Source: a virus. Taken from it: DNA of 64,000 nt. This document shows positions 1 through 44,843 of the stretch, one piece after another. The translations under genes were made by a program, and so were the position numbers. Under the pieces are notes generated by a model. The model had not been told where the DNA came from. It saw nothing but the letters and a program-made list of their open reading frames with translations, and made no database searches. The stretch lies in the IMG/VR virus record IMGVR_UViG_3300027668_002455, positions 1-64,000 of that record; one strand, written 5' to 3'. The first letter of the stretch is position 1; each line of letters starts with the position of its first letter.

Positions 1-90
1 GTACGTGTACGTATGATATTGTACGTATACGTATTGTACGTGTACGTATGACATTGTACGTATACGTATTGTACGCGTACGTATGATATA
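1..90. repeat. Tandem array of GTACG(T/C)(G/A)TACGTA units (alternating 20 and 15 bp; 35 bp period), truncated by window start
   Basis: Units at 1-20, 21-35, 36-55, 56-70 and 71-90, read directly. Confidence 0.95.
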
Positions 91-103
91 TCATTATTTC
101 GCG

Positions 104-184
104 CTTATTTATTTCTTATTTGTTTCTTATTTACTTCTTATTTGTTTCTTTCTTATTTCGTTATCGGGCGTTTCTTTCTTATTT
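104..184 (+). repeat. CTTATTT direct-repeat cluster
   Basis: Copies start at 104, 115, 126, 137 (11 bp period), 152 and 178. Confidence 0.85.
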
Positions 185-208
185 GCAAGTCTGGCGTTTC
201 TTTCTTGC

Positions 209-1009: not shown

Positions 1010-1945
1010 TTAGCCTTTAATTTTGGTGGTGTTACCTACACGGCGAACCTTACGCCCGTCGATGTAGCGTTGCATACAGAACAAGACTCGTTGAGCTTGG
1101 CTGATATAAGTTTCATCACCACGGCCTTTTTCACCAAGGATGATGTTGCGAGCTTTTGATGTCGGGCAACTTTTGGGTTGACCGCCTCCAATCGCCTCGT
1201 TCGCGAAGAGCAAAGCTTTAGAGGGACTAACGGAGTGCATCATAGCCAAGGGAAACATAAATGCCATCCGCTTGAACGGTTGACCCTTTTGCCCCGTAGG
1301 AACAATCCCAGCCGCCCACTGGATGCTTTTCTTCTTGGACTCGAAGAACTTTTCCATTTCCTCGTCAGTGGGATTTAGTTGACGTAAGCCCCCAGAACTT
1401 ACGTTCTTGTGACTTTTTAATGTCTCGCTCCACGCTTGCCAACGGATACCAACCTGTTGCGCTTTCGCCCATCCTGTCGGAGTAAGACCCCATTTTTGAA
1501 ACAGACTCAAACCCAACACCTCACGCATAGTACGCGATTTACCACGGTCAAGCTTGGCCATAGACTTAACATCCGCTCCTGATTCAACAATCATTTTTAC
1601 ATTCTTGTTTTGTTTGGAGATAGCATAGATACGATGCTGACCGTCTAACAGTTTTCCGTTCGTGCCAAATTTAAGCGCGGTAGGATAGAAGTTGCCATCT
1701 TCAATATCAAGAATTAGGCGTTGAGTCTTTTTACAATTTACTCGCAAGTTACGATTTGTAAATGCAGGGGCTTTTCCTGCGGGGGTAGAGTTCCGCTCTT
1801 CAAGAATCTTTGCAGCAAACTTGGGAGTGATAACCATAAATTTTACGTCTGGATTCTGATTGTCCAGAGTCGCATCATCTAGGTATGGGGTTTTTTGGGC
1901 TGCCGATTTGCCCTTTCTGATTCGGCGTATAGTTACTGTCTCCAT
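1010..1945 (-). CDS. ParB/Srx-like N-terminal domain protein
   Basis: GKLLDGQHRIYAI motif and NRNL upstream; promoter TTGCAG-17-TATTCT at 2035-2007. Confidence 0.7.
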   Translation of the reverse strand: METVTIRRIRKGKSAAQKTPYLDDATLDNQNPDVKFMVITPKFAAKILEERNSTPAGKAPAFTNRNLRVNCKKTQRLILDIEDGNFYPTALKFGTNGKLLDGQHRIYAISKQNKNVKMIVESGADVKSMAKLDRGKSRTMREVLGLSLFQKWGLTPTGWAKAQQVGIRWQAWSETLKSHKNVSSGGLRQLNPTDEEMEKFFESKKKSIQWAAGIVPTGQKGQPFKRMAFMFPLAMMHSVSPSKALLFANEAIGGGQPKSCPTSKARNIILGEKGRGDETYISQAQRVLFCMQRYIDGRKVRRVGNTTKIKG

Positions 1946-2069: not shown

Positions 2070-2157
2070 TTGACAAACAAGCCTCGCGGGTGGGCCCCGC
2101 CGGATAGTACGTGTACGTACTATTCGTTGATGCCGCCGACAAGCCAAGTATTGTCAG
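2070..2157. repeat. Palindromic dispersed element, copy 1
   Basis: TTGACA at 2070, GC arm, core GATAGTACGTGTACGTACTAT at 2103-2123, TGTCAG ending 2157. Confidence 0.9.
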
Positions 2158-2186
2158 GTTCTTTATCTTTATCAGATTCTTTCATA

Positions 2187-2390
2187 CTAAAAAGTTCTAT
2201 GTATTAAGTCTTTCGGCGTAGTAGTCGGTGGTCGCCAACCTCCATCACAATTACAATACTTCGGGCAGTCATCTTCTTTGCTGCCTTGTTTGCACATCGT
2301 CTCGTGGCACGTTGGACATAGGTGCAACCGTCTCATCTGCGGATGCTTGACGCAAAACTCTTTTGTTAGTGGGCCGTATTTAGTTGTCAT
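2187..2390 (-). CDS. Small Cys-rich hypothetical protein
   Basis: CPTC and CNC motifs; in line with neighbouring minus-strand ORFs. Confidence 0.6.
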   Translation of the reverse strand: MTTKYGPLTKEFCVKHPQMRRLHLCPTCHETMCKQGSKEDDCPKYCNCDGGWRPPTTTPKDLIHRTF

Positions 2391-2580
2391 TTTATTAAGG
2401 TCTCACCGCGCCCGCCTTGCCCGATTTTGTCTTTCCGCCCCCCAAGTATTTAGCTTGGTCTGAAGGTTTTCCGTGGAGGCCATTTGCTCCGAGTCGGCTG
2501 CGTTGATTCTTCGTCGGTGAAGTGCGACAGGAGAGTTTAGGTTTCTTTGCTAGTGGTTTCATAATTTTATTCTTTTGTTG

Positions 2581-2954
2581 TTAAAATCCGAATCGACTGC
2601 CAAACTCTTTTACTTCCACTACCCAACGCGCGCCTTCTTTAGTTGGCTCGGCAAGTTCTTTCACCTCTGTTACTCTGCCACTCCATTGATTTTGTTGATA
2701 GGCGGCCCAAGTTTGTGCGGCGTGTTTATATCTGAAGTAGTTCATATCACCCTGTTTTGCCACTCTCTTTCCATTTCTCTATAGGTTTGAATCTCTTTCA
2801 CCATAGTCAAAGATTTGTTAATCATATCTTCGTCCAAACCAAGGCAAAGAGAAGGGTGATGCGCTCGCCCACTTTTTAATTTTCCCCACTCAATGCAGTT
2901 TGTTACATCTTGCAAGGTGCTGTGTATGTATTCCAGTTTTTCGTGTTCAGTCAT
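2581..2954 (-). other. Two overlapping small hypothetical CDS (2742-2954, 2581-2763)
   Basis: ORF track; tight packing on the coding strand. Confidence 0.6.
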
Positions 2955-3097
2955 TTTATCTAAATAAGATTGCTACAATCACACCCACCAAGACACCCAC
3001 CGAAAAGATAGTGGCGTAAAAAGTCTCTGGGGCGTAAATTTCGACAAGGGTTGCCTCATCCGCTTTACCTTCTTTATCACAATCAATTTTGAAATAT

Positions 3098-3331
3098 CTA
3101 TTCATAATTTTGTTTGTGGTATGATGGCAATTTAGCCTCTACAATGTTCAGGGTCGCAACTGTGTTGCCATTGCCGTCTTGCGCGGTGGTGAAGTCGCCA
3201 ACGTCTGCCGCCATAATGCGGTCAGCATTATCCAATAGTCTTTCAAGGACGTTCCGCATCTCAAACAATCGTTCGGCATCGTTACTGCCAAATGCCGAGT
3301 TGCCCAATTCAATTTCAATTATCGCTTTCAT
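3098..3331 (-). CDS. Hypothetical protein (start MKAIIEIELG)
   Basis: A-rich leader before ATG 3331 is more plausible than the 3379 start. Confidence 0.65.
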   Translation of the reverse strand: MKAIIEIELGNSAFGSNDAERLFEMRNVLERLLDNADRIMAADVGDFTTAQDGNGNTVATLNIVEAKLPSYHKQNYE

Positions 3332-3496
3332 AGTTTTTTTTGGTTTGTAATTTACAAGTCCGTGCCAGAAGTCACTCATACTGCGTTATAGTAGAGGGTG
3401 ACTGTCAACACGGCGTATGCCGCTATTCCCCACAGTATAAGCCACAGGAGTGTAGTGATGAATGTATCTAGTATGTCTTTCATAGTTTTAATTATC

Positions 3497-3751
3497 TCAC
3501 AGATTAGAAATCAGGTCAAGTTCTTTTTCAACGCCTTCGGGAGTAAGGAACCCCTTAACGTCATCGTTCCAGCCGAGTGGGTCGCACATCCTGCCGAGGG
3601 CATCGAATACACCAATCTCATAAAGGCCTTTTTCGCCTCCGTAGGATAATTGATTTTGTACTACGCTTACCTCGTAGCCACTCTCAAACTTGACTACCGC
3701 CTGTATATCGCCCACAGCGTGGGTTTCAAATTTTAATTCTTTGAATGTCAT
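3497..3751 (-). CDS. Conserved phage-type hypothetical protein
   Basis: F..GY.VSVV....YGGEKGLYEIGV...V.G.L pattern recalled from small phage proteins. Confidence 0.7.
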   Translation of the reverse strand: MTFKELKFETHAVGDIQAVVKFESGYEVSVVQNQLSYGGEKGLYEIGVFDALGRMCDPLGWNDDVKGFLTPEGVEKELDLISNL

Positions 3752-4194
3752 AATATTGCCCTAACTTCTTTACCCATCTCGCCACAACCGAATACGACAA
3801 GTTTAGCTTTATGAACTGGCTCGCCTGTATCCGTCCGAATGAATGTTTCATTCTTATATGGATTGTAGGTGATACCCACCGAATCCAAAATCCAAGTACA
3901 GGCTGGGCCGATGTTCTCCCAGCGTTGTTCTTCTTCATTCCAGCCTTCTCGACCTTGAATGTAAGCGTGAACATTCTTACGCTTCTCATCACGCACTCTC
4001 TCCTTACCCTTCTCACTCACACGCAAGGTGCAATCCCAAAGGGCAAAGTGACAAAGGTGCTTCTTAACTAGACCGTCATTACCACGTACGCTATACACGG
4101 GTTGGTCGCCAACTGCTTTGGGGTCAATCCCCTTGCCGACTTGCTTGCTCAACTTTTTGTTGAGGTTCCGATATGCTTGGATGTAGCCTTTCAT
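3748..4194 (-). CDS. Conserved phage-type hypothetical protein
   Basis: YRNLN, RV..EKRKNVHAYI.G and YNPY motifs; start overlaps the upstream stop. Confidence 0.7.
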   Translation of the reverse strand: MKGYIQAYRNLNKKLSKQVGKGIDPKAVGDQPVYSVRGNDGLVKKHLCHFALWDCTLRVSEKGKERVRDEKRKNVHAYIQGREGWNEEEQRWENIGPACTWILDSVGITYNPYKNETFIRTDTGEPVHKAKLVVFGCGEMGKEVRAIL

Positions 4195-4397
4195 TATTCC
4201 TCCTCCGTTCCAAAGATTCCGTCTTGGCAGGGCTGGCATAAAACCGAGATGCCGTACTCCCTGCGGGAGACTTCGTTGCGGAACTCAAGATTGAATTCAC
4301 CGCACTTAACACATTGACCGCTCGATTTTGCCACGGCGGGGTAACGACCATAAATGTTAAAGGCCATATTCTCTTTGAAGCTTTGTAGTTCGTTCAT
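4194..4397 (-). CDS. Small zinc-finger protein
   Basis: CVKC...CQPCQD; promoter TTGCAA-17-TACTAT at 4434-4406. Confidence 0.7.
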   Translation of the reverse strand: MNELQSFKENMAFNIYGRYPAVAKSSGQCVKCGEFNLEFRNEVSRREYGISVLCQPCQDGIFGTEEE

Positions 4398-4489
4398 CTG
4401 CCTTAATAGTAAACGATTTTAAGATTCATTGCAAGCCTTTAAATGCAACAATCTTAAAAAAGATATACACTCTCGCCGATACTTTTCCC

Positions 4490-4544
4490 TTGACACACCG
4501 GCCTCGCGGGTGGGCCCCGCCCGATAGTACGTGTACGTACTATC
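4490..4544. repeat. Palindromic dispersed element, copy 2 (left arm and core)
   Basis: TTGACA at 4490; GCCTCGCGGGTGGGCCCCGCC identical to copy 1; core 4523-4544. Confidence 0.9.
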
Positions 4545-4546
4545 TT

Positions 4547-4580
4547 AAAAAACAAAAGGGGCCCCGAAGGGCCCCCTTGC
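4547..4580 (-). terminator. Intrinsic terminator
   Basis: GGGGCCC-CGAA-GGGCCCC hairpin (UUCG loop on minus) plus U tract. Confidence 0.85.
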
Positions 4581-4616
4581 TTTATTATGATAGAACAAAC
4601 AACGGAACAGAAATAG

Positions 4617-4890
4617 TGGGAGAGAGGATTTCTGCATTACCTCCAAAGCCAGTGATCAATACAGTTCATGTTACCAGCTTGCCCAACCCACAAGGTTCAT
4701 ACGATTGTACTCTACCGCTGTGGACTAGCACCTTTCCCCTTGAGATACAAGGATATTCAGTCACTCCCTTTGTCCAGCCGCGTATGCATCGGGACCGGAC
4801 AAAATTGTTCTACTGGTGCTTCCTCGCCCCTAACAGGACGCGTATCCCGTTTGCTGCGTTAGGCTTGCCAAGGCTGTGTTTCGCCTCCCA
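4617..4890 (-). ncRNA. Structured ncRNA with tRNA-like ends; 3' part resembles the manA RNA motif
   Basis: 5' TGGGAGG pairs with 3' TCTCCCA next to a GAGG...CCTC hairpin; several internal stems; GGGAGTGACTGAATA segment; no minus-strand ORF in the track. Confidence 0.6.
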
Positions 4891-4899
4891 GTAAATTGT

Positions 4900-5066
4900 T
4901 GCTGGTGCAGGGGATCGAACCCTACCCGTCCCTATCGTGTCACCGTCTAGTTTCAATGCATCTCCACTAGGGGCTTTCAGCCACGGGCGTTACTACGGTA
5001 CTTGACAAAGAGGGCGTTAACCGTATGTCAGAGGTTATAACCGTAATACTTCCAAACCTCACCAAC
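4900..5066 (-). ncRNA. tRNA-like 167 nt RNA
   Basis: 7 bp acceptor stem GTTGGTG/CACCAGC and T arm TAGGG-TTCGATC-CCCTG; interior far too long for a tRNA. Confidence 0.7.
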
Positions 5067-5076
5067 ATAAATTGTT

Positions 5077-5355
5077 TCAAAGATCAGTAGGGTTGCCCCT
5101 GTCACTCTTTATATAATAAGGCAAATTGACATCTATGTCAACATTTTTTTTAATGTTTTTTAAGTGAGCCTCTAGGGCTACGGTAAAGGCTTGCACCTTT
5201 TCGTCTGGAGCGGTGCGGATTCTGCCCATCATCTTACTCCAGTTAAGATAGTCATCCGCATCTTCTTCTACGTCTGCCACTAAAACCATTCGTTGATCAA
5301 GCGGGTGACTTGCCCACACCTTACCATTCTTTGAGTCAATTACTGCTCTGAACAT
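5077..5355 (-). CDS. Hypothetical protein
   Basis: Promoter TTGACA-17-TATGAT (5390-5362) ends 6 nt before the ATG. Confidence 0.7.
   Translation of the reverse strand: MFRAVIDSKNGKVWASHPLDQRMVLVADVEEDADDYLNWSKMMGRIRTAPDEKVQAFTVALEAHLKNIKKNVDIDVNLPYYIKSDRGNPTDL
5113..5141 (-). promoter_or_regulatory. Sigma70-type promoter for the ncRNA unit
   Basis: TTGACA-17-TATTAT. Confidence 0.7.
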
Positions 5356-5400
5356 TCTCCAATCATAAGGGATATTGAGTCGCGTGTCAACAACAAAATT

Positions 5401-5453
5401 TAGTACGTGTACGTACTATCTGCGGGGGTGGGCCCGCCGCGCCGAAAAGTCAA
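5401..5453. repeat. Palindromic dispersed element, copy 3 (core and right arm)
   Basis: TAGTACGTGTACGTACTATC at 5401-5420, GGGTGGGCCCGCC, AGTCAA ending 5453. Confidence 0.9.
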
Positions 5454-5598
5454 ACACAAACTTTTATGATTGTAAAAAACAAACCCACCATGGCCGCTAA
5501 GCCATGATGGATTGTCTAATATTTTTTACCTTCTGTTAGTGTCGAACTCGTTATAGAATAGGAAAAATAATATAGTTCCTATGATTAATATTGCTCCT

Positions 5599-6330
5599 TC
5601 AATGGGTCAGCACCTCCTTTCGTTTTTTGTTTATCACTTTCAACGCTTCACCGGCTGCACTACCTTTGGGCTGTGTGCCGTGAATCAGAAGCGCGAAATC
5701 TTTTTTGCCAAACGCGGCGTGGGTGTCGTCGTGGTCGATTTCCAAACCGAGGTCGGCGGCTTCTTGCTCGGAGTAAACCACGACAGCTTCTTTCCATCCA
5801 AGGTGGTCTATCATATCATCATACTTGCCACCACGGGAAGCAGTCAACACGAGGTTATCAGGTTTTGGAATCCCCGCAAGCACGGGAAGGCTTTTGCTGT
5901 AAGAGTAAAAAATCTTGTCGGGATTGCGCTCGGCAACCAAGCACCACGCCAAAAAGTAATTGCGATTGAAATAGTCACCACCAACGTGGACGCGCATTAC
6001 GTCAAACTTTTTTGGAAGTGATTCGCAAATGAGATCCGCGCACGCCTCCACGCTGTTAAGCAACGCACTCTTGAGAAGGCTGAGGTTGTGCCAAACCATT
6101 TTACGCAGGGAAGGATAAACCGCCTCGGCACTAGCGGCAAAGCAACGAAATTCTGTTTCGTCTCCGTCTGTGATTTTCCCCGTGTCTGGATCGGCCCACG
6201 CAAGGCAGTCTTTTGCTCCGGGGCAAGTGTGTCCAGCGGGAAGGGTGAAGGTCTTGAGAAGCAGCCCAAGCTGGGCCACCATCTCTTTGAGTTTTTTGTT
6301 CGGATTTCCGAATCGTAATAAGTCTTTCAT
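5599..6330 (-). CDS. GP88-like phage protein
   Basis: GN.KL, FTLPAGHTCPGA..C, CFA, RVHVGGDYF and FYSYSK motifs; promoter TTGACT-17-TACAAT (6368-6340) supports the start at 6330. Confidence 0.75.
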   Translation of the reverse strand: MKDLLRFGNPNKKLKEMVAQLGLLLKTFTLPAGHTCPGAKDCLAWADPDTGKITDGDETEFRCFAASAEAVYPSLRKMVWHNLSLLKSALLNSVEACADLICESLPKKFDVMRVHVGGDYFNRNYFLAWCLVAERNPDKIFYSYSKSLPVLAGIPKPDNLVLTASRGGKYDDMIDHLGWKEAVVVYSEQEAADLGLEIDHDDTHAAFGKKDFALLIHGTQPKGSAAGEALKVINKKRKEVLTH

Positions 6331-6364
6331 ATGCGGTCTATTGTATAGGATGTGAGGTTTAGAG

Positions 6365-6782
6365 TCAAGCATCAACATCAGATAAATTCTCTGCTTTGCC
6401 GTGGTTGTTGTCGTATCCAAAAAATTCAAGGTTGGCACGTTGGGCCTTGTAGCCTGTCGTGGATTCCAACTCTTCCAGCGCGGCAGCGGCAAACTTTCGA
6501 GCGGCAGGGAGTGCGCCGCCTTTGATGCCCTTGAAGGTTTCGCCGTGGTTGTCTATTAGATAGAACAGGCGGGAGAGTTCCACACCGCGCAAATACTTTT
6601 CGGGCGTGGTAAAGAAACGAACGGCACTCTTGGAAATCCAATCCACTTGCTCACTGTCTGGCTCAAGAGAGGCAATAGAATAATGCCAAAACCAATAATA
6701 CTTTTCAGCGGTTTCTTCGCGAGAGTCGCTCTCGATGTAAATGATAATCTTACTGCCCCAAGGTTGTTTTCTAATAGTCATA
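6365..6782 (-). CDS. Hypothetical protein (start MTIRKQPW)
   Basis: ATG overlaps the 3' end of the upstream 46 aa ORF. Confidence 0.6.
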
Positions 6783-6911
6783 ATGCTTTGTGTGTTTTCT
6801 TCTACGTTGAAAAGAGCCTTTGCCCTTTTGTGGTTTCTCAATACGGCAAGCGGAACCCATCAACCCTTGTGGGTTGACTCTGGCTCTTGTACTGTCTTTC
6901 TTGCCTTTCAC
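6771..6911 (-). CDS. ArfA-like (alternative ribosome rescue factor motif) small protein, 46 aa
   Basis: Manual translation MKGKKDSTRARVNPQGLMGSACRIEKPQKGKGSFQRRRKHTKHYDY (GTG start); promoter TTGCAA-17-GATAAT at 6947-6919. Confidence 0.6.
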   Translation of the reverse strand: MKGKKDSTRARVNPQGLMGSACRIEKPQKGKGSFQRRRKHTKHYDY

Positions 6912-6975
6912 TGTTAAAATTATCTCATAAATCGGGTTGCATTGCAAGCCCTAAAGAATGTAAAAAGTAAGAAAG

Positions 6976-6996
6976 TTATTCACAGGTTGTGGATAA
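6976..6996. promoter_or_regulatory. Inverted pair of DnaA-box consensus sites
   Basis: TTATTCACA-GGT-TGTGGATAA in intergenic DNA. Confidence 0.55.
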
Positions 6997-7003
6997 GTTT
7001 TGC

Positions 7004-7091
7004 TTGACAAGCAGGGCCGCGGGGCCCACCCAGCATGATAGTACGTGTACGTACTATCTCAGGGGGAGGGCCCGCCGCTATAAAAATACAA
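7004..7091. repeat. Palindromic dispersed element, copy 4
   Basis: TTGACA at 7004, core 7037-7058, GC arms on both sides. Confidence 0.9.
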
Positions 7092-7126
7092 GTATTAAAT
7101 ACTTATATATAAATACAAGAGAGGGC

Positions 7127-7155
7127 AAAAAAAAGCCCCCGCTTTCGCGGGGGTT
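7127..7155 (-). terminator. Intrinsic terminator
   Basis: CCCCCGC-TTTC-GCGGGGG hairpin plus an 8 nt A run. Confidence 0.85.
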
Positions 7156-7185
7156 GAGTATCGCACACCGGTGTTTTACAGCGAC

Positions 7186-8079
7186 CTATTCAGTCACAAC
7201 GATTTGAGAATCATTGACAACGGGCTTGACCAGCGAGGTCAGGCGTTTTGGGTTCCGAAGCGCGGCCTCGAAGTTCCGCAGCACTTGCGTTCCAATCCGG
7301 TTGGAATACTCGAAACGGGTTTCCTCGACCTCATCAGTGAGATGTTGCGTCACCGAGTTGTACAGGTTGTACAGATTCGGGTCGGTGTTGTTAGTCCGAA
7401 GCAAATCCTCGCGGTTGCTCCAGATACCAGCCACGCGCTCGCGCACCTTTTCGCTCATCACCTTCTTCTTGGTGAGATTGGTGAGGATGTTCAAACCCTT
7501 CTCATCATCCAGCTTGGTTGCGGCGAGTTGCCCGTAAACATTCCCCGACTCTTTCAGAAACGCCAGCGCGTTGTCAAGGGCCGAGTCGGTGATAAGGTTG
7601 TCCAAGTTGAGCTTGGTCGAGTGCTTGCTCACCATATCAATGTCCTTTTCCATTGTCTGCATCCCGTTGAGACACACAAGGCGCATAAGCCCCAACGCGA
7701 AGGAAACGCGCAGAGTACGGTCAAAGGAGTTTTGGACGGTCAAACGATAGTTCATTATATCGCCAACCATCGGCACGGTAGTGCGGAATTGATCACCCTG
7801 CAAATCGTACACAGCACGGAGCTTTGCACCATCATTGGTGGCATACACGTTGCGCTCATACTTAATGCCCCGCGAATCAAAAGCAGATTCTGCTTTAGTC
7901 AGGAGGTCGGCGTTTTGCACAATGCCATACCGCTCTGTACTGTATCCAAGTTCCTCGCCCGTATCGGTTCGCACGTTGGAGAAAATTTTAGACTGTTTCC
8001 CGTTCGGGCGTTTCAGTCGCTCTTGAACGACCTCATAATCCCAGTTGCTGTTTTTAGTTTGTTTTGCTTCAATCGGCAT
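7186..8079 (-). CDS. DUF932/DUF945 family protein
   Basis: VRTDT...LG....Y.IVQN, NSFD, RLVCLNG, H+ and LYNLYN..T..LT motifs; likely start MPIEAK. Confidence 0.8.
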   Translation of the reverse strand: MPIEAKQTKNSNWDYEVVQERLKRPNGKQSKIFSNVRTDTGEELGYSTERYGIVQNADLLTKAESAFDSRGIKYERNVYATNDGAKLRAVYDLQGDQFRTTVPMVGDIMNYRLTVQNSFDRTLRVSFALGLMRLVCLNGMQTMEKDIDMVSKHSTKLNLDNLITDSALDNALAFLKESGNVYGQLAATKLDDEKGLNILTNLTKKKVMSEKVRERVAGIWSNREDLLRTNNTDPNLYNLYNSVTQHLTDEVEETRFEYSNRIGTQVLRNFEAALRNPKRLTSLVKPVVNDSQIVVTE

Positions 8080-8340
8080 AATGTATTTTTTCTTTCTTTG
8101 GTTAGTGGTTTCTCTTACTGCCCTAATTATCTCATACGTTGAGAATGAATGCAACAGTTAATTGCATCTAATACGCATTTTTTAATTGCCCTATATAATA
8201 GCGATTAATTAGCCACTCATTCGTGAGCGACAAACGCGTTTGCCAATCATAAAACGCAAAAAGTGATTGACAAGTTTCTTGTAAAGGGGTGTTTTCTCCG
8301 GTGCGAAATTCGCCCGAAACACGAAACTCAAAAGTTTTTC

Positions 8341-8430
8341 TTGACAAGCAGGCCGCGCGGGGGGACCCCGTTGGATAGTACGTGTACGTACTATCTCAGA
8401 GGGTGGGCCCCGCCTCGGGCGATTTGTCAA
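8341..8430. repeat. Palindromic dispersed element, copy 5 (most complete)
   Basis: TTGACA at 8341, core 8374-8395, GGGTGGGCCCCGCC, TGTCAA at 8425-8430. Confidence 0.9.
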
Positions 8431-8525
8431 GCCTTTTTTTCAGAAAGTTTTCCCCAAGATGATAACAATGATACTCTTTATTTGGCGATAAGAGAATTAC
8501 AATTATAATTAATTATTTGAACAGA

Positions 8526-8600
8526 CATCATTCTTATTTGCATCATTCTTATTTACATTGATATCATTCTTATTTGTATAGTTCTTATTTGTCTTATTTG
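8526..8600 (+). repeat. Second (ATCAT)TCTTATTT direct-repeat cluster
   Basis: CTTATTT starts at 8533, 8548, 8569, 8584 and 8593 in AT-rich non-coding DNA. Confidence 0.85.
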
Positions 8601-9818: not shown

Positions 9819-10085
9819 CTACCAATTTAACTCAACCTCTTCTTGTTTTACTTCTTTATCACTATCTAAATCAACCTCATTAGATTCAATGATATTAGTA
9901 TATGTTTCTATATGTTTGTTATTAGCTTCGGCTAGGATGGGACTACCCTCAAGGTTCAGTTGCTCGGCGTACTTACGGGATACCATAACAGTAGCACCCT
10001 CTTTAAGCACACGGTTCAACTCACCGAGAGTAACTCCGAGGAAGGAGCATCCCGCCGCACCAGCTTTGCGTCCGCGTTTAGCCAT
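9819..10085 (-). CDS. Hypothetical protein
   Basis: 88 aa ORF with KRGRK N-terminus. Confidence 0.7.
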   Translation of the reverse strand: MAKRGRKAGAAGCSFLGVTLGELNRVLKEGATVMVSRKYAEQLNLEGSPILAEANNKHIETYTNIIESNEVDLDSDKEVKQEEVELNW

Positions 10086-12521: not shown

Positions 12522-13214
12522 TTAAAATGTATATTTGAACTCATCTAAATCTTCTTCCCACATCTTATGTACCATACTTTTTGTCTCCTCGCAATAGAAA
12601 TCTTTATAGGGGGCGTGTGGCGTTTGGTTTTCGTGCGGCAGCACGGGGTTAACTGCGTCTGGTATATGTGTCCCTTGTGCGAGGCGCGTAGCGCGAATCA
12701 CAGACGGGTGACTCACCTTTGTGAGCGGGATGTTGAAATCTGTTAAAAATGTTTTAAATTCTTCATTAATGTTTTCAAATCTTAAAACCCTATCCACTCC
12801 AATTTTATCATCCAGCATAAGGTAAGACTTTTGGGTGAAGGCGTGAAGAAAATCGGCATCATCTTTAGCCTCAAGCATAGCTCTACAAAAAGAACCAAAA
12901 GAATAATCTCCAATTAAATAAGCCGCAAACATCCACTCATTCTTCCGCGCAAAGCTATACATTGAAACTAAACGGTCATAAGGATTCCTTACGACTGCCA
13001 AGGAGGGAACATTAAGAATTTCCTCGCCAAGCTCTCTGATTGCCTCTGTGAGTAAACAGTGGGAGGGACAAAAGCAACCTTTGTATCTGGCTTTCTCCCT
13101 TTGAGAAAATTTAAATAGCTTTTCATCTCTAATGGTATTTGCGGTTCCTAGTGACTCGTAAACAGAGGTACTTGCGTTTTTTGGTATCCTCACGAATGTG
13201 GCGAGAGTGTTCAT
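12522..13214 (-). CDS. Sulfotransferase family 2-like protein
   Basis: FVRIPKNASTS, VRNPYDRLVSMY, RFENI and D...F.Y.F motifs. Confidence 0.8.
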   Translation of the reverse strand: MNTLATFVRIPKNASTSVYESLGTANTIRDEKLFKFSQREKARYKGCFCPSHCLLTEAIRELGEEILNVPSLAVVRNPYDRLVSMYSFARKNEWMFAAYLIGDYSFGSFCRAMLEAKDDADFLHAFTQKSYLMLDDKIGVDRVLRFENINEEFKTFLTDFNIPLTKVSHPSVIRATRLAQGTHIPDAVNPVLPHENQTPHAPYKDFYCEETKSMVHKMWEEDLDEFKYTF

Positions 13215-37375: not shown

Positions 37376-38032
37376 CTACTTTTTTAAAGTGAAAACCAAT
37401 AAGTCCATCCATGCAGAGAATGACTCATCGACGGGTTGAATAGACCTCCCGTTATGCCAGAGGTAGCTATCATCAATTATCAACATTGTCCCTGCATCAA
37501 GCGTGGCCTGTAAAAAGGGCGTTTCGGTTTTGTGTGTAGACAGGAGGGCCTCTCCCCCAATGATATTATTACGATCAACCCCTATCATGGCAACTCGGTC
37601 ATACCCGTCTTGATGCCACCCTTCGGGAGATAGTTGTGTTGCTCCCCCTTTACAGTTTACCCTTATTTGATGAATGTCAAATTCATATTTAACTGATTTG
37701 TCTAGGGGCGCAAGAAAAATTCCAATCATCTCTTTCATTACTGAAGAAGATAAAACAGAAGGGTCTATGTTAATAAATTTCCTAGATTTTCCTCCTTGGT
37801 GTTTGTTGTACTTTTCACTCTGCGAAAATTCTGAAATATCTAATGGGGTTATTTGAAGGTCATCAAGGGAGGGGAGCCAGTGTGACTCCCAAAAAGCTTC
37901 AACCTTGGAGTATTTTCTTAAACGATATCCGCCGTCGGCATGGTTCGTCGCGGGTAAATCATTAAATGATTTTTTTATTTCACTCAGCAGGTCTGGATCA
38001 ATTTTTGTTATTTGTAGTATCGTGTTTGTCAT
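37376..38032 (-). CDS. 2OG-Fe(II) dioxygenase, amino-acid hydroxylase type
   Basis: YRLR.YS, F.Q...YN, HQIRV, PEG.HQDG, NI.GG and LWH motifs. Confidence 0.8.
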   Translation of the reverse strand: MTNTILQITKIDPDLLSEIKKSFNDLPATNHADGGYRLRKYSKVEAFWESHWLPSLDDLQITPLDISEFSQSEKYNKHQGGKSRKFINIDPSVLSSSVMKEMIGIFLAPLDKSVKYEFDIHQIRVNCKGGATQLSPEGWHQDGYDRVAMIGVDRNNIIGGEALLSTHKTETPFLQATLDAGTMLIIDDSYLWHNGRSIQPVDESFSAWMDLLVFTLKK

Positions 38033-39189
38033 ACATTCTTTCCAAAGACTTCGTTTGATTGCTGATTCACTCTAATAAAAGTAGCACACTTTGGCATATC
38101 TTTCAATCTTTTTGCTCCTATATAAGTACAGGTTGAACGGATGCCGCCAAGTATATTTTCTATCGTGTTTTTAATAAGTCCACGGTGCTTTATCCTTGTC
38201 GTCTTTCCTTCCGAGGATCGGTAGCTGGCAACCCCGCCGTGATACTTGTTCATAGCTGTGTCAGAGCTCATTCCATAAAATGTTTTATATTTCTCCCCAT
38301 CCACTATTTCTTCTTGTCCAGCAGATTCCGTATGTCCAGCCAGCATACCACCAAGCATAACAAAATCAGCACCAGCAGCAAAGGCTTTGGAAACGTCTCC
38401 AGCACATGTGCAGCCACCATCAGCCATAATATGCCCACCGACGCCATGAGCAGCGTCAGCACATTCGATGACGGCTGAAAGTTGTGGATAACCCACGCCA
38501 GTCTGAATCCTAGTAGTACAAACAGAACCACCTCCAACACCGACTTTGACAATATCTGCTCCACTTAATAATATCTCCTCTGTCATTTCGCCAGTGACAA
38601 CATTCCCCGCAATGATAATAAGCGCGGGGTGTTCGTCTCTGACTCGTTTAATAAAGTCGCAAAACCTTGATGTATAGCCATTAGCTGCATCAATACATAC
38701 GAACCTAGTGTGATAAAAGTTCCATGTAATATTATTAAGATAATCTATATCATCTGCCTTATTTGGGTCATACTTAATACCAATGGAGGGCGAGATATGG
38801 TCGTAAATTCTGCTCTGCCAATCATCTGCGCCTCGTTCGTACGACCAGTTCTTTGAGTTAGCTTTCCTGCTTTCTGGTGTCTTATAAACTCCGTAGCCGT
38901 CCAGTTTATGTAGCCATTTTTTTGCATCGGAGTGCTTACTAATACAAGTCAGCATATGGTATTGAGCAAGAGCCTTCGCTGTTTCAAACGTGCCAACCGT
39001 ATCCATATTTGCCGCGACGATGGGGATACCCTTCCAGCCATAAGCCTTAGGGTCTGAGCCTTCGCCGCCAGCGTTTTTGAAAGTAAACTCGCGCATTAAA
39101 TCAACATCATTACGAGATGTCAATTCTGAACGCTTGGGACGTAGAAGAACATCCTTGTAGTCTAGCTTTATTTCTGACTCAATTCGCAT
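38029..39189 (-). CDS. guaC: GMP reductase
   Basis: KLDYKDVL.RPKRS, ANMDTVGTF, KVG.G.GSVCTTR, DGGC and FYGMSS..AM motifs; start MRIE. Confidence 0.95.
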   Translation of the reverse strand: MRIESEIKLDYKDVLLRPKRSELTSRNDVDLMREFTFKNAGGEGSDPKAYGWKGIPIVAANMDTVGTFETAKALAQYHMLTCISKHSDAKKWLHKLDGYGVYKTPESRKANSKNWSYERGADDWQSRIYDHISPSIGIKYDPNKADDIDYLNNITWNFYHTRFVCIDAANGYTSRFCDFIKRVRDEHPALIIIAGNVVTGEMTEEILLSGADIVKVGVGGGSVCTTRIQTGVGYPQLSAVIECADAAHGVGGHIMADGGCTCAGDVSKAFAAGADFVMLGGMLAGHTESAGQEEIVDGEKYKTFYGMSSDTAMNKYHGGVASYRSSEGKTTRIKHRGLIKNTIENILGGIRSTCTYIGAKRLKDMPKCATFIRVNQQSNEVFGKNV

Positions 39190-39463
39190 ATTTTTCGTGC
39201 ATCCCTGCGTGTATTTCGGCATGACAATTTCTGCATACCAAGATAGTGTTGTCTGCTTCTTTCTTTAAATTTTTAAGACTTAAATCTCTTCTTGATGATA
39301 TAGTGAAGTTTTTTTTATTAACGTGGTGAAAATCTAGTGCCCAGTTACATGCTGCGTAACCACAGATACAGCACTTTCCCCCTTTGTATTCTACAAGAGC
39401 AGCTTTTTTCTCTCTTTGTCGAGCAACTGTACCTTGGGATTTTATTCTGGATTCGATTGACAT
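39179..39463 (-). CDS. HNH-like endonuclease
   Basis: YKGGKC..CGY....ALDFHH...VC.NCHAEIH. Confidence 0.75.
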   Translation of the reverse strand: MSIESRIKSQGTVARQREKKAALVEYKGGKCCICGYAACNWALDFHHVNKKNFTISSRRDLSLKNLKKEADNTILVCRNCHAEIHAGMHEKYAN

Positions 39464-39495
39464 GAGTTTTGTCTAAAATAGTAGTGTTATTATCT

Positions 39496-39756
39496 CTAGT
39501 TGTCAAGCCAGCTTAGATACCCATAGATATTCATGACTGTAATAATTAATGACATTACCATTGTAGAGTATGCTTTCTTGTGGTAGGAGTATAATCCCAC
39601 ACCCAAGTTCCCAGCTATCCACACCAGCCACGAAGATAGAAGGTGGTTAGCATTTAAATAATAGCCAAAAACCACAAGAAATGCCCCAAGCCACCCTATT
39701 AGTTCAAAGGCGTTGACTTTCGTAGCTCTCTCTGAAGAGATTTTTTTCAAGTTCAT
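39496..39756 (-). CDS. Small membrane protein with three TM helices (PnuC-like half)
   Basis: W...N and NIYGY..W in a hydrophobic sequence. Confidence 0.55.
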   Translation of the reverse strand: MNLKKISSERATKVNAFELIGWLGAFLVVFGYYLNANHLLSSWLVWIAGNLGVGLYSYHKKAYSTMVMSLIITVMNIYGYLSWLDN

Positions 39757-40279
39757 AACAGGATTTTAAGATGTCTTCTTCTATGCCTAATTTAATTCTT
39801 ATATAATAGGGGGTGGAAGTGAGATGATGTCTGAAATCAACCTTAGATAGATCACTTGGGCATTTAGAGCCAGCCATAACAGCATTATAAAAAACGAGTC
39901 TTTCGTCTTCACCAAACTTGTAGCCTTCTGGGTAAAGATACTTGGCGCAAAACATAAATAAGTTTCGCCTCCACCGAGCCATCCTCTTAGTGCTTCCCAT
40001 GGTGTAGCCAATTACAAATGCCTCATCTTTTACGCCCAAGCCTCGACCCAGTGTCGCGTGAATACAGTCGTGAGTAAATAAATCAACCGCGCCCCCAAAA
40101 AGTGTCGCCGTTTTGTAACTTGGGTTTTCAACCAACTTTATGATAAGTGGAACATCGCTTTGATTGAGCGAGAAGGGGGACATTTCCTCAAGGATAGAAT
40201 CTAGAGTATAATTTGACCCTTCACGCACAGAGGGGGCTTCCCAAAGCTCTGCTGGTTCTATTTCTTTATAGGCCTTCAA
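39704..40279 (-). CDS. Coq4-like HDxxH metal-binding protein
   Basis: HDCIH..LG......E motif. Confidence 0.5.
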   Translation of the reverse strand: MKAYKEIEPAELWEAPSVREGSNYTLDSILEEMSPFSLNQSDVPLIIKLVENPSYKTATLFGGAVDLFTHDCIHATLGRGLGVKDEAFVIGYTMGSTKRMARWRRNLFMFCAKYLYPEGYKFGEDERLVFYNAVMAGSKCPSDLSKVDFRHHLTSTPYYIRIKLGIEEDILKSCYELEKNLFRESYESQRL

Positions 40280-40604
40280 TTATACATTTAATGGTTTTTA
40301 AGTGGAGCATCTTTTCATACTCCTCCTCTGATTCATATCTCTGTGCATTGAAACAGGACTCTCTGATTGATTTCTCGACAACCTCTAGCAGTTTGTCTTT
40401 GTGCTCTCGTAGTACCTGTAGCTTTTCAAGATCAGTCATAAGTGTCGCTGTACTCGTTAAGGTGTCGGTAGATTTTTACCACCTTCTCTCGGTAGGAGTC
40501 CACTTTAAGAATCTTATAATGTTTATTTTTAACACCACGATTCCACGCCTCCTCGTTTTTAAGGATACGGTCTACAGTCTTATCGAATTTGCTTTGTTGC
40601 TTCA

Positions 40605-41168
40605 TTATCTCAGTTCCTTTTTAATAAGTCTCCACCTATCACTGTCTATTTCTTTTTCTCCAGAGTCAATCATCTTCAACATATCCACGACTTCTTCTAT
40701 CGTGTCGTAAATATAGTGGTGTGGTAGCATCCCCATCATCCATAGTGGTGTTTTGCTTTTCCCTCCCTCCATACTTATGAAGATAGGTTTTTTCATTCTC
40801 ACCGCTGTAACAATTTCTTCTGCGCTTCCCCAACTTGCCACCTCTGGTACTAAGTGGGCTACGATAAAGTCGCTTCTGTCAACAAGGTTTAAATCGTAAC
40901 TACGTATTCTTTTCATCCTCTCTGCAACGTCACTGTAAAACCCAAGCTCCATGTCTCGCTGTACTTTTTCGCGAGTCTCTTCGCCCTCATCTACATCTTT
41001 TACGAAGGGTTTTTTATATGGGTTGAAGATAGTTGTGCCAAGAGGTAGTAGTTCTTCTTCGACATAATCACGCCAGTCTCTCCCCTCGGCATACTGCATA
41101 TGCCCTACGAGATAGGTACGCGTTTTCCATAGTAGATTATCTTTGTTGTTTTGATTTTGCACGGGCAA
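40605..41168 (-). CDS. Nucleoside 2-deoxyribosyltransferase-like protein
   Basis: YLVG.M, WR, FNP, DL..VDRSD.IV and S.G...E...A....KP motifs. Confidence 0.8.
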   Translation of the reverse strand: MPVQNQNNKDNLLWKTRTYLVGHMQYAEGRDWRDYVEEELLPLGTTIFNPYKKPFVKDVDEGEETREKVQRDMELGFYSDVAERMKRIRSYDLNLVDRSDFIVAHLVPEVASWGSAEEIVTAVRMKKPIFISMEGGKSKTPLWMMGMLPHHYIYDTIEEVVDMLKMIDSGEKEIDSDRWRLIKKELR

Positions 41169-41339
41169 TGACTCTTTTTTTTACTTTATTTAAAACGATC
41201 CTAGACCAGATGGTATACCTTTTAGAGCCTTGAACTGAGTCGCCTGTCGTAGACACCTCTTTTTCAATTTCACCAAGGATATTAAGTACCTCATCTAACC
41301 CAAAGTAAATCATTTTATTATATTAGTCAAGTAAAATCG

Positions 41340-42461
41340 TCATACAGAAATTTCTAGTTTTTCTAGATTCTTACTGAAATCTTCATATGGGATGTCGCTG
41401 TAGGATAGGTTCTTCGGGTATTGCGTATAGTGATCTCGATCCTGATCTTTATCACCATCAAAAATACCTTCAGCCATGAGGGAGGCTACTGAAGAAATTG
41501 GAAAAGCCGTGGCTCTTTGCATAGCTGTAAACCCTGTGGTGTTACCGTGCGGAATCAAGATTTCTTTATCATATTTAATATCCCCTCCTTTAACAGTGAT
41601 CTTCATAAAGACCACATCTCCGAAGGGTTGAGGGGGACATCCCTTTTCAAAAATAGCGCCAAGGGTTTTATCATCTACCTTGGCGTGTCTAATTAAGAAT
41701 CTAACTGCCTCACAGTGGCCTTTGTATCTTAATGTCTTGTAGGAGCAGTCCTTGACTCCTCGTCTCTTCATGGTTTCAATCGTGTGGGACGCTCCCCCAC
41801 TCGTAAAAAAGGCTTCCATGTCTTCGTTTATAAGATCAAAGTGGACTTCCTCTAACCCCTCCATGCCTCGCTCCTCATGGATTTCACCGTTCAGAAGTAC
41901 CTTACAGTCATCCTTGTACTCATTTACAAGGCCATCGGTAGACCATGAGCAAATATAATTGAAGGGCGGGTTTGCATCGAAGCAAGCTGGGAGTCCTCCT
42001 ACCATCATTTTAACTGAATCCACCTCACAATGGAGTTGAGAGTACCCATGCTCTGCCATAATGTTAACCCAGCCGGGTGCAAGCCCCAAGTCTGTCATAA
42101 TGGGTTTGGTTGCTCGCTCTTGGGCATAATCATTTATAGATTGGGACACGTCTACGCGACCACCAAGATCGCAGTAGCGAATATGGTTATCAATGCAAAA
42201 TTCAGCCAAGGTTTGGTTTTGGTGATACGGGAGGCTGCTGATTACAACATCAACGGCTTCAAACTGGGTGAGTAACTCTTTGTAGTCGCGCTCATCGCAA
42301 TTATAGAAGGTTCCCTCCTCTTCTTGCTTAATGTGGTGTCTAAAATTATTGGCCGCATCACTGCTAGAGTCAATGCCAACAACATAATACCCAAGTTTAG
42401 ACATGGCGTACGATATGGCTGTACCCATCCTACCGATTCCAAAAACAGCTACCTTTTTCAT
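41340..42461 (-). CDS. Saccharopine dehydrogenase / lysine 6-dehydrogenase family oxidoreductase
   Basis: G.GRMG Rossmann motif, LPY, YCDLGG, GLAPG, VGGLP, WS.DGL.NEY, KTLRY.GH and AMQRAT. Confidence 0.88.
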   Translation of the reverse strand: MKKVAVFGIGRMGTAISYAMSKLGYYVVGIDSSSDAANNFRHHIKQEEEGTFYNCDERDYKELLTQFEAVDVVISSLPYHQNQTLAEFCIDNHIRYCDLGGRVDVSQSINDYAQERATKPIMTDLGLAPGWVNIMAEHGYSQLHCEVDSVKMMVGGLPACFDANPPFNYICSWSTDGLVNEYKDDCKVLLNGEIHEERGMEGLEEVHFDLINEDMEAFFTSGGASHTIETMKRRGVKDCSYKTLRYKGHCEAVRFLIRHAKVDDKTLGAIFEKGCPPQPFGDVVFMKITVKGGDIKYDKEILIPHGNTTGFTAMQRATAFPISSVASLMAEGIFDGDKDQDRDHYTQYPKNLSYSDIPYEDFSKNLEKLEISV

Positions 42462-42466
42462 ATTTT

Positions 42467-43303
42467 TTATTGCTCCCTTTCTCTTTCTCTTTCTCTTTCT
42501 TTTCTCTCCGCTGCACCACACGCAGCCATGAAGTTAAAAGTTTTACCCATAGAGTCTAGCAACCACGTTTGCTCCTCTGGATTATTTTCATAATAATTAC
42601 TCCTGATAATCTCTTGTCCAACTTTTTCTTTAAAGAAGATTAGGTCTTCTTTTTCTTTCATAAAGGACTCTAAAGTGAGCCGTGTTTGTGTCTGTGGGGT
42701 AAAGTAAAATTCCTTTTCAGAAACATTGGTATAATGAGCAATCATGAGGAGGCACTTTTTGCCCTCTACTGTTGTGATCTTTGTTTTTCCCCGCTCAAGG
42801 AAAAAGGATTCCTCGCATACGTGATCTTCGTTTCTGAATTTGTGTCGATTTAGGTAAGATTTTTTAAACCCAAGGATATGAGTTGGGTTTCTTAACTTCA
42901 CGTGGGCAATTGTTTTGTCGTGCTTTAAGTCATATACATACAGGTCATCCAAACATGCTACTTCATATTTTTTAGGTGTTAAGCTTTTTACTATGTGACT
43001 TACACATGTCGCTGGATAAAAATCATCATCATCCATTTGGACAATTATTTCCCCTTTCGCAAGGGAGCAGAGCTTGTTTCTTTTTTTTCCAATAGACAAT
43101 GGGGTTTTGCTTTTTGAATGATGGTATTTAATTCGCTTGTCTGTAGGTAAATGTCCCTTCATGGAGGGTCCTCCGTCCTCGTAGACCAGAAGCTCCATTC
43201 TATTTTGTGGATAAGTTTGTCTATAGAAATTTCTAAGAACATTTTCTGTAAAAAATGCCCTGTCTCGAGTCGGAACAATTATAGATACAAGTGGTTTTTT
43301 CAT
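42467..43303 (-). CDS. Glycosyltransferase family 2
   Basis: VSIIVPT.DR, IG.KRN and MDDDDFY motifs. Confidence 0.85.
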   Translation of the reverse strand: MKKPLVSIIVPTRDRAFFTENVLRNFYRQTYPQNRMELLVYEDGGPSMKGHLPTDKRIKYHHSKSKTPLSIGKKRNKLCSLAKGEIIVQMDDDDFYPATCVSHIVKSLTPKKYEVACLDDLYVYDLKHDKTIAHVKLRNPTHILGFKKSYLNRHKFRNEDHVCEESFFLERGKTKITTVEGKKCLLMIAHYTNVSEKEFYFTPQTQTRLTLESFMKEKEDLIFFKEKVGQEIIRSNYYENNPEEQTWLLDSMGKTFNFMAACGAAERKEREREREREQ

Positions 43304-43656
43304 TACTCCTTCCATTCTACCTGAATTAGGTTCTCTCCAAAGAACTCTCCCGTATACCTCACCGCATCCATTGGATCAAACTTTTTGCAAGTGTAAATAT
43401 CAATGGAAAAGAAGGGCGGTTTTCTGTCGTCCCATCCATAAATGTGCATTCCGCTTTCTTTCCAGTGCATATACGCGCACCACCCGTAGTGGGAATCATA
43501 GTTGCAGACGGGGGATGTCACCGCTGTCATGTTTAAGACCTTGGTTACCTCCTCACAGTAGCGAGTCATGTCTTCGGGTTTGAAGGCATTGTGAAGCGTC
43601 CCTTCGATTATAATTCGCTGTCGGCAAATGTCTGGTGCTAAATCTTTCCAACTCAT
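43303..43656 (-). CDS. S-adenosylmethionine decarboxylase-like (pyruvoyl) protein
   Basis: ES cleavage site, HIY.W and SIDIYTCK.FD; ESG in place of the canonical ESH. Confidence 0.65.
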   Translation of the reverse strand: MSWKDLAPDICRQRIIIEGTLHNAFKPEDMTRYCEEVTKVLNMTAVTSPVCNYDSHYGWCAYMHWKESGMHIYGWDDRKPPFFSIDIYTCKKFDPMDAVRYTGEFFGENLIQVEWKE

Positions 43657-44066
43657 AACTCTTCTATCCTTTTTGATTTGTCATCTATCACTAAATCACA
43701 AGCTGGCTTAATATATTTTCCTTTAGAGCCGGTAGATAGGTCATGAAATTTACAACCCCACGATTCCAGCTGTCTCCAAGTGAATTCATAATAACATTTA
43801 CCAAGTGATATAGATTTCTGAGAGCCGCCTCGGGCGGTCCAATAAATAACGTACCATCCTTCATCATATAATTTATTTATTTTATTTATATTTTCCTGAC
43901 TAGGCTCAGCAAGGTCGTACCGTCTTTTGTCAGGGTAAAAGCAAATGGTTTCATCAACATCCACTAACACAACCTTTCTGTCGTCAGAGGAAAACTTTTT
44001 GGATTCATGAAAGTTCATGTCTTCTGCAAGTTGATTGTACATCTGCGCTTCTGGGTGCTCGCTCAT
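43653..44066 (-). CDS. Capless HAD phosphatase
   Basis: DVDETI, WTARG and KP..D.VIDDK motifs. Confidence 0.8.
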   Translation of the reverse strand: MSEHPEAQMYNQLAEDMNFHESKKFSSDDRKVVLVDVDETICFYPDKRRYDLAEPSQENINKINKLYDEGWYVIYWTARGGSQKSISLGKCYYEFTWRQLESWGCKFHDLSTGSKGKYIKPACDLVIDDKSKRIEEL

Positions 44067-44830: not shown

Positions 44831-44843
44831 AATTAGTTTTTAT

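Follow-up and report, generated by a model that had tools for sequence, protein, structure and literature searches.

The KorB operators of RK2 and the stoperators of mycobacteriophage L5 are short sites that recur about 10–30 times in intergenic DNA, at variable distances from promoters, and through which one protein exerts global control. The bacterial interspersed mosaic elements (BIME) or repetitive IHF-binding palindromes (RIP) of enterobacteria have the order REP (repetitive extragenic palindrome), IHF site, REP; they are chromosomal, are spread by a RAYT transposase and have no role at cassette boundaries. In T4-type phages, promoter-early stem-loop (PeSL) cassettes combine a promoter with a polyG/polyC stem-loop in hyperplastic regions, where modules are exchanged by recombination (Arbiol et al., 2010, PMC2839356; PMC4122927). 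The large genome of phage T5 has an injection stop (iss) region in its early part, where DnaA boxes occur together with repeats and palindromes (Davison, bioRxiv 10.1101/866236). Here we describe a palindromic element of about 90 bp that recurs in the early region of a viral genome, represented by a stretch of 64,000 nucleotides (positions 1 to 64,000 of the IMG/VR record IMGVR_UViG_3300027668_002455), which we call the window. The explanation we prefer, with somewhat more belief than doubt, is that the element is a boundary module of the early transcription units, with a MarR-type operator at its centre, and that it doubles as a crossover point for recombination.

A repeated palindromic element between PhoH and a RuvB-like gene

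At the centre of the element lies a 22-bp core, GATAGTACGTGTACGTACTATC, which is an inverted repeat around a 2-nt centre (GATAGTACGT-GT-ACGTACTATC). Within the window the core starts at positions 2103 (one mismatch), 4523, 5399 (two mismatches), 7037 and 8374. No further match with up to three mismatches was found in the 64 kb, and 100 shuffled sequences yielded none. The relaxed inner palindrome TACG-N4-CGTA is likewise confined in the window to these five sites and to a tandem array at positions 1–90. In four copies TTGACA starts exactly 33 bp to the left of the core (2070, 4490, 7004 and 8341), and in three copies a mirror-image hexamer ends 33–35 bp to its right, at 2157 (TGTCAG), 5453 (AGTCAA) and 8430 (TGTCAA). 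The arms have a G+C content of 75–86%, compared with ∼41% genome-wide. The original prediction, made from the letters of the window, had reported five palindrome copies in the early region together with these hexamers and G+C-rich arms, and the mismatch search and the shuffles bear this out. As single strands, four of the five window copies fold better than their shuffles (z from −2.9 to −5.0). An Rfam search gave no match on the elements and found only a manA RNA and a tRNA outside them. When the first 12 kb of the window were compared with GenBank phages by megablast, nothing was returned, and a literature search for the core string found unrelated primers only.

The series of copies continues to the left of the window. 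Near-identical metagenome contigs that cross window position 1, obtained by looking up the 311-aa protein encoded beside copy 1, carry four complete copies at −845, −2425, −4156 and −5421. A tenth copy has its left arm just before position 1, and its right half is replaced by the tandem array (1–90, plus strand). The array consists of five 13-bp units, GTACG(T/C)NTACGTA, which correspond to the inner part of the core and are spaced at 20/15/20/15 bp. As it is preceded in the contigs by a DnaA-like box, GCTTGACA, a G+C arm and GATA, we regard the array as the opened right half of the tenth element. The record begins exactly at the first array unit, after GATA, and its start there may be non-arbitrary.

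All ten copies lie within ∼15.5 kb between PhoH and the RuvB-like AAA+ gene, and the other 55 kb of the window contain none. Thus, the earlier remark that the element is not seen beyond 8.4 kb holds towards the right, but not towards the left, where further copies follow across window position 1. That the copies are always intergenic was confirmed and extends to the five copies left of the window: ten of ten fall between genes in a region with a coding fraction of 0.71 (P ∼4e-6). As in PeSL-bearing phages, the motif is confined to a hyperplastic region of small orphan genes, and a like clustering is seen in two relatives, G001 and G002.

The genes of the region lie on the minus strand. Along the direction of transcription, the upstream gene usually ends first, in many cases with an intrinsic terminator after its stop (as at copies 2, 3 and 4), and an A+T-rich palindrome and a −35-like hexamer come next. 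The core follows between two G+C arms, then TTGTCAAG and a short A/T stretch, in many cases with a DnaA-like box, and finally, 19 to ∼110 bp on, the sigma-70-type promoter of the next gene. The promoter scan predicts such a promoter on the minus strand at 6919–6947 (TTGCAA-17-GATAAT, with TG) for the unit downstream of copy 4, and similar ones, also on the minus strand, at 8273–8246 and 4443–4416. The intrinsic terminator of the DUF932 unit is predicted on the same strand at 7136–7153, just upstream of copy 4 in the sense of transcription, with similar ones at 5513–5482 and 4578–4555.

The outer hexamers of the element are a different matter from these promoters. Neither the TTGACA boxes at 2070, 4490, 7004 and 8341 nor the mirror TGTCAA at 8425–8430 has a −10 partner at 16–18 bp in the promoter scan, and the spacing that defines a sigma-70 promoter is therefore lacking, in agreement with the earlier statement that they are not normal promoters. 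Nor do the elements look like intrinsic terminators: the core of copy 3 alone scores as one, weakly, the T7 of copy 5 lies on the non-coding strand, and beside copies 2, 3 and 4 the scan lists separate terminators.

The copies of the window, all given on the plus strand, differ in how complete they are. Copy 5 (8341–8430) is the most symmetric, with TTGACA, an arm, the core at 8374–8395, an arm and TGTCAA, after which comes T7; the whole copy can fold into a single long hairpin (z = −5.0). Copy 1 (2070–2157) consists of TTGACA, a G+C arm, the core at 2103–2124 (last base T), a degenerate right arm and TGTCAG. Copy 2 (4490–4544) has TTGACA, a G+C arm and the core at 4523–4544; in place of its right arm stands the minus-strand terminator at 4555–4578, which closes the manA-RNA unit. 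In copy 3 (5362–5453) the core at 5399–5420, whose first two bases differ, is followed by a right G+C arm and AGTCAA, and where the left arm would be, at 5390–5362, stands a near-consensus minus-strand promoter (TTGACA-17-TATGAT), which serves a 92-aa gene (5077–5355). Copy 4 (6976–7095) starts with two head-to-head DnaA-like boxes at 6976 and 6988 and continues with TTGACA at 7004, an inverted G+C arm, the core at 7037–7058 and a second G+C arm, after which comes the A+T-rich palindrome AAGTATTAAATACTT.

Conservation and cassette reassortment in related phages

The central 18 bp of the core occur as an exact 18-mer in 13 stretches of viral contigs. These share PhoH, RuvB-like, DUF932 and further genes with the window and therefore belong to one clade, which is a clade of uncultured marine phages. 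The cores of the relatives are clustered in the same region: a 67-kb record has nine of them within its first 11 kb, and the phage type represented by G002 and the contig C0108 has 16. Among 50 non-identical copies TACG and CGTA are invariant and variation is confined to the central 4 nt, while orthologous neighbouring proteins are 41–76% identical. The motif search in related phages that had been proposed along with the original prediction thus finds the core kept, and the feature is real, conserved and selected.

The surroundings of the core are less constant. The distance from TTGACA to the core flank is 26–27 bp in this genome, 28–29 bp in G001 and 39 bp in G002. The fixed geometry that had been noted is thus a property of this genome, in which the distance holds within 1 bp in nine of the ten copies, but not of its relatives. 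In the relative L002, TTGACC lies 18 bp from TACTAC and the arm between them is absent, and many copies in G001 and C0108 have no TTGACA box. Long G-run/C-run hairpins make up the arms in G001, where they are strong, and are also present here, whereas in C0108 they are absent and plain G-tracts take their place; the arms are thus convincing as hairpins in some lineages only. Most copies lack a T-tract. The arrangement of the cores varies as well: five pairs are spaced exactly 44 bp apart around a G+C palindrome (four in G002, one in C0108), there are direct tandem arrays at 15/20 bp, and more distant members carry direct tandem arrays as well.

To follow the gene content around the element we compared the window with G001, G002 and C0108 and mapped the flanks, 700 bp on each side of the core, of 42 further contigs obtained by scanning metagenomes for the 22-mer. 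In the three relatives the conserved genes are found in different units and in different orders, with cores at the joints. The 42 contigs show many collinear cases beside reassorted ones. Three flanks change partners across the core: the RuvB-side flank is found with DUF932, gp82 or novel DNA, the manA-side flank with gp82, the 138-aa gene or DUF932, and the 138-aa-side flank with four different partners. In one case 1.7 kb are missing, and a single core connects the sequence on the left of copy −4156 with that on the right of copy −2425. In G001 a 257-aa gene with a core on either side takes the place of the single copy 4 of the window, and the outer flanks agree on both sides. Two strains that are 99.9% identical over 14.7 kb part at copy −4156, where they have different versions of the element and a different downstream gene. 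Insertions, deletions and replacements between related phages are thus bounded by the motif, as they are at PeSLs. The exchange of flanks, the deletion that runs from one copy to another and the divergence of near-identical strains at a copy together mark the element as a cassette junction of the PeSL type. The cassette-shuffling reading, which had been put forward with PeSLs as the comparison, is therefore well supported. Gene content is indeed swapped and deleted at the element in the relatives, as had been asked, with a precision of 0–200 bp.

At otherwise collinear loci in the metagenome contigs L069, L072, L095 and L084 the central GT is inverted to AC. This two-base change is best explained as one event, either a template switch within the palindrome or an exchange with a copy in the opposite orientation. 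All copies in the window had been described as having the same orientation, but this orientation rests solely on the central GT. As other strains have AC in place of GT at the same locus, the shared orientation does not represent a functional constraint.

The core as a putative operator, rival explanations and neighbouring genes

The exact 18-mer was also searched for in one genome per species of 185,579 prokaryote species. It has nine matches in bacteria, seven of them within 1.3 kb of a marR-family gene and mostly directly upstream of marR or of an operon of a metallo-beta-lactamase (MBL)-like gene and marR. An eighth match is a truncated copy of the same MBL-MarR operon. The matches come from Myxococcota, Fusobacteriota, Planctomycetota, Actinomycetota, Chloroflexota and Campylobacterota. 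As a control, the palindrome read backwards gave 13 matches, mostly inside genes, of which none is near marR. The core also has the form of a MarR-type operator, that is, a dyad-symmetric site of 16–20 bp found upstream of marR genes. With seven of nine matches adjacent to marR against none of 13 in the control, the core is most likely the operator of a dimeric winged-helix regulator of the MarR type.

In Cetobacterium (L030), a Fusobacteriaceae metagenome-assembled genome (L035) and Sulfurospirillum arcachonense (L037) the 18-bp palindrome precedes a subclass B3 metallo-beta-lactamase-like gene, which in Cetobacterium and S. arcachonense is followed by a marR gene. Judged by their sequences, these loci are an uncharacterised MarR regulon common to several phyla.

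Several observations weigh against an operator at the centre of a boundary module. The MarR proteins beside the identical operator are mutually only 20–26% identical, which links the core to an operator type and not to one orthologue. Searches by hidden Markov model, Pfam family and profile, which covered the window, 572 kb of related phage loci and five related records but not ∼112 kb of this genome, found no MarR homologue. A profile-based comparison likewise gave no match to MarR for the 138-, 140- and 92-aa proteins. The operator was not found in 401 genomes of Pseudomonadales, the sole candidate host order, where one match with one mismatch compares with eight for the reversed control; this candidacy comes from a look-up of the aldehyde dehydrogenase and probably goes back to a mis-binned phage contig in a Pseudomonadales metagenome-assembled genome. 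The distance between core and promoter (∼19–110 bp in the window and 41–106 bp in G002) is variable and too great for simple steric repression. Finally, the breakpoints of reassortment are resolved only to within 0–200 bp of the core. The earlier suggestion of a multi-site protein-binding element thus gains an invariant core that is identical to a bacterial MarR-type operator, but its binder was not found in these searches.

Could the element instead work through its structure? The core and the G-run/C-run arms would then act as a DNA or RNA hairpin, serving as attenuator, insulator, RNase III-type processing site or mRNA end protector, with no dedicated sequence-specific protein, as has been suggested for the PeSL stem-loop. 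The favourable folding of four of the five window copies agrees with this, as do the polyG/polyC stems, which fit the description of the PeSL stem-loop, and the T-runs after the outer boxes in copies 5, 0 and −2425. Copy −845 lies in a 123-bp gap without a recognisable promoter and is therefore probably transcribed, and the flip from GT to AC at a fixed locus is the outcome expected of template switching in a hairpin. We nevertheless consider such a structural role unlikely: the stem sequence is constant, with zero compensatory pairs in the 50 copies, the direct tandem arrays and the 44-bp pairs need no hairpin, the arms in C0108 are not hairpins, one copy alone is terminator-like, and that weakly, and the same 18-mer would serve as a DNA operator in bacteria. 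A sequence that is constant except at its centre, and that occurs singly, as phased pairs and as direct arrays, points to selection by a dimeric DNA-binding protein and not by a hairpin. The suggestion of an RNA-polymerase docking site or unusual promoter, with TTGACA as −35 box and a partner in the core (GATAGT or TACTAT) that would be usable after hairpin extrusion or with a phage factor, fares worse and seems to us very unlikely. The distance of TTGACA is nearly fixed in this genome, each core half holds a −10-like hexamer, and L002 shows TTGACC at 18 bp from TACTAC. Against this, a −10 box at 16–18 bp is missing, the distance from the −35 box to the core is 26–29, 39 or 5 bp depending on the lineage, many G001 and C0108 copies have no box at all, the conserved left box points away from the genes, and ordinary promoters lie downstream. 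Sigma-54 promoters, T4 MotA, LexA, Fur and CRP boxes and a protelomerase target were also considered by eye against consensus sequences, and were rejected for misfits of motif or spacing.

Sites for replication origin, partition or DNA entry, by analogy with parS/ParB, KorB or the DnaA-box-rich injection stop region of T5, would imply that the array forms an origin or centromere together with the DnaA-like boxes and the CTTATTT iterons, and that the dispersed cores are extra loading sites for the same protein. The array adjoins both the DnaA-like box and an iteron-like cluster of eight CTTATTT repeats phased at 11 bp (104–206, plus strand), and together these look origin-like; a second CTTATTT cluster lies at 8525–8600, 100 bp to the right of copy 5. 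DnaA-like boxes, which almost without exception read TTATTCACA, are strongly concentrated around the cores (25 of 31 at 120 bp or less), in the relative L007 three of them in tandem precede a core array, and the T5 region joins DnaA boxes with palindromes. The 311-aa protein encoded beside copy 1 (1010–1945, minus strand) has a ParB_N lead, in that ParB_N is found on 20% of the members of one nearby atlas cluster. This basic protein (pI 10.2) has no match in Pfam, however, and its gene is a mobile unit that is missing from G001, where the whole cassette region with nine cores is available, and was not found in three other partial related records (G005–G007). It therefore fails as binder of the core, and with it the parS-like site of the original prediction, since no ParB-family protein keeps company with the sites as it would in parS/ParB or KorB systems. 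The sites also stand at every unit boundary and not at one locus. The genome entry or replication signal of the original prediction is hinted at by the tandem array and the DnaA-like boxes alone, and we hold an origin, partition or entry function to be quite unlikely. Most improbable in our judgement is a site-specific recombination site, similar to integron attC or lox, at which a dedicated recombinase would cut to move cassettes. An imperfect palindrome of ∼90 bp does bound the cassettes, and one deletion runs between two copies. Yet integrase or recombinase families are found in none of the 42 genes called from PhoH to the RuvB-like gene (locus L014), the homology breakpoints are scattered over 0–200 bp, the central asymmetric dinucleotide flips freely, and most units have their own promoters, unlike integron cassettes, which are promoterless and adjoin an integrase gene. 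A further possibility, to which we give a small chance, keeps both the operator and the recombination joints but makes the ten or more copies high-affinity operators for a host MarR-type stress or metabolite sensor, which would tie the early units to the state of the host or be soaked up as a repressor by the phage DNA (a sponge). A lytic-type phage would in that case wire its whole early programme to a host regulator.

Under the explanation that we prefer, the operator-centred boundary module, the element stands between two early transcription units, behind the terminator of one and 19 to ∼110 bp ahead of the sigma-70-type promoter of the other. The invariant 22-bp palindrome would be bound by a dimeric sequence-specific protein, most likely a winged-helix protein of the MarR type, which could be encoded by the host or elsewhere in the phage. 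Because the operator is common to the boundaries, a single protein could read all ten or more of them together, and we infer that it insulates or represses the early units. The G+C arms, the TTGACA/TGTCAA boxes and the DnaA-like boxes would be accessories that vary between lineages. As the same 20–90 bp recur at every boundary, they would also offer crossover points for homologous recombination; whole units are gained, lost and re-ordered there.

Some neighbouring features were observed in passing. The manA RNA (Rfam RF01745, 60.5 bits, E 6e-13) lies on the minus strand at 4613–4797, in a gene-free unit that runs from a near-consensus promoter at 5141–5113 to the terminator at 4578–4555. In C0108 it forms a leader immediately in front of the gp82 homologue, and the two are not separated by an element. 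Between the promoter of this unit and the manA RNA, the gene-free minus-strand stretch 4800–5075 contains a tRNA T-arm-like sequence, GGTTCGATCCC, at ∼4911–4927, for which ARAGORN makes no call. Beside the RuvB-like gene, an 88-aa protein (9819–10085, minus strand) is 63–79% conserved in the closer relatives sampled, and in L001 the figure is 35%. An RGRK stretch lies in its N-terminal part, a VMVSRKYAEQLNL motif recalls DNA binders of the AbrB/MazE type, and its AF2 model is of low confidence (pLDDT 58). Further to the right the window encodes a sulfotransferase (12522–13214) and, at 38029–46379 and 58609–59760, metabolic genes that are unusual for a phage: an aldehyde dehydrogenase, a member of the IMPDH/GMP-reductase family, a saccharopine dehydrogenase-like protein and a radical SAM/SPASM protein.

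Relation to known systems

The BIME/RIP elements resemble the element in being intergenic mosaics of ∼100 bp in which a G+C-rich palindromic arm on either side encloses a central protein-binding site, which is putative here. They differ in that theirs is a chromosomal, RAYT-spread sequence, whereas the present element marks the boundaries of cassettes. The iss region of T5 offers a looser parallel for the mixture of DnaA-like boxes and palindromes; it is a single untranslated block in a terminal repeat, whereas here the motifs are found at every cassette boundary. With KorB operators and stoperators the element shares a conserved short intergenic site that is repeated at variable distances from promoters. 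KorB, however, is a ParB homologue, and the ParB_N-like gene of this phage does not travel with the sites, while the stoperators of L5 are asymmetric 13-mers in a temperate phage.

Closer is the likeness to the autoregulatory operators of the MarR family. The central 18 bp are letter for letter identical to sequences upstream of marR or MBL-marR in at least seven bacterial lineages, and the size and dyad symmetry of the core are typical of such operators. In contrast to these, the phage has at least ten copies and arrays in addition, placed upstream of promoters and not overlapping them. A MarR gene was not found in the phage DNA searched.

By analogy of layout, the PeSL cassettes of T4-type phages are the nearest described system. 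In both, an intergenic motif recurs across a hyperplastic early region rich in small orphan genes, early promoters of the sigma-70 type lie nearby, and insertions, deletions and replacements are bounded by the motif. Both also have a polyG/polyC stem-loop, which in PeSLs terminates transcription and which here is found in some lineages. The element described here has in addition the invariant 22-bp palindrome, which is absent from PeSLs, and it belongs to another phage clade. Its promoter lies outside the fixed element, 19 to ∼110 bp away, and no strong sigma-70 promoter is found inside the motif, only copy 3 abutting one. The −35-like box precedes the G+C arm here and follows it in PeSLs. To call the element the best candidate for an undescribed system in this stretch, as was done at the outset, is therefore too strong, since its layout is a variant of the promoter/stem-loop cassette boundaries of T4-type phages. 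Small early genes represent much of the repertoire of phages for host takeover and anti-defence, and their turnover is poorly understood outside the T4-type phages. A different and environmentally widespread marine clade shows the same principle, with repeated regulatory joints at which units reassort. What is new compared with PeSLs is the invariant operator-like palindrome, which makes the boundaries easy to spot in metagenomes and provides a concrete bait for the putative regulator.

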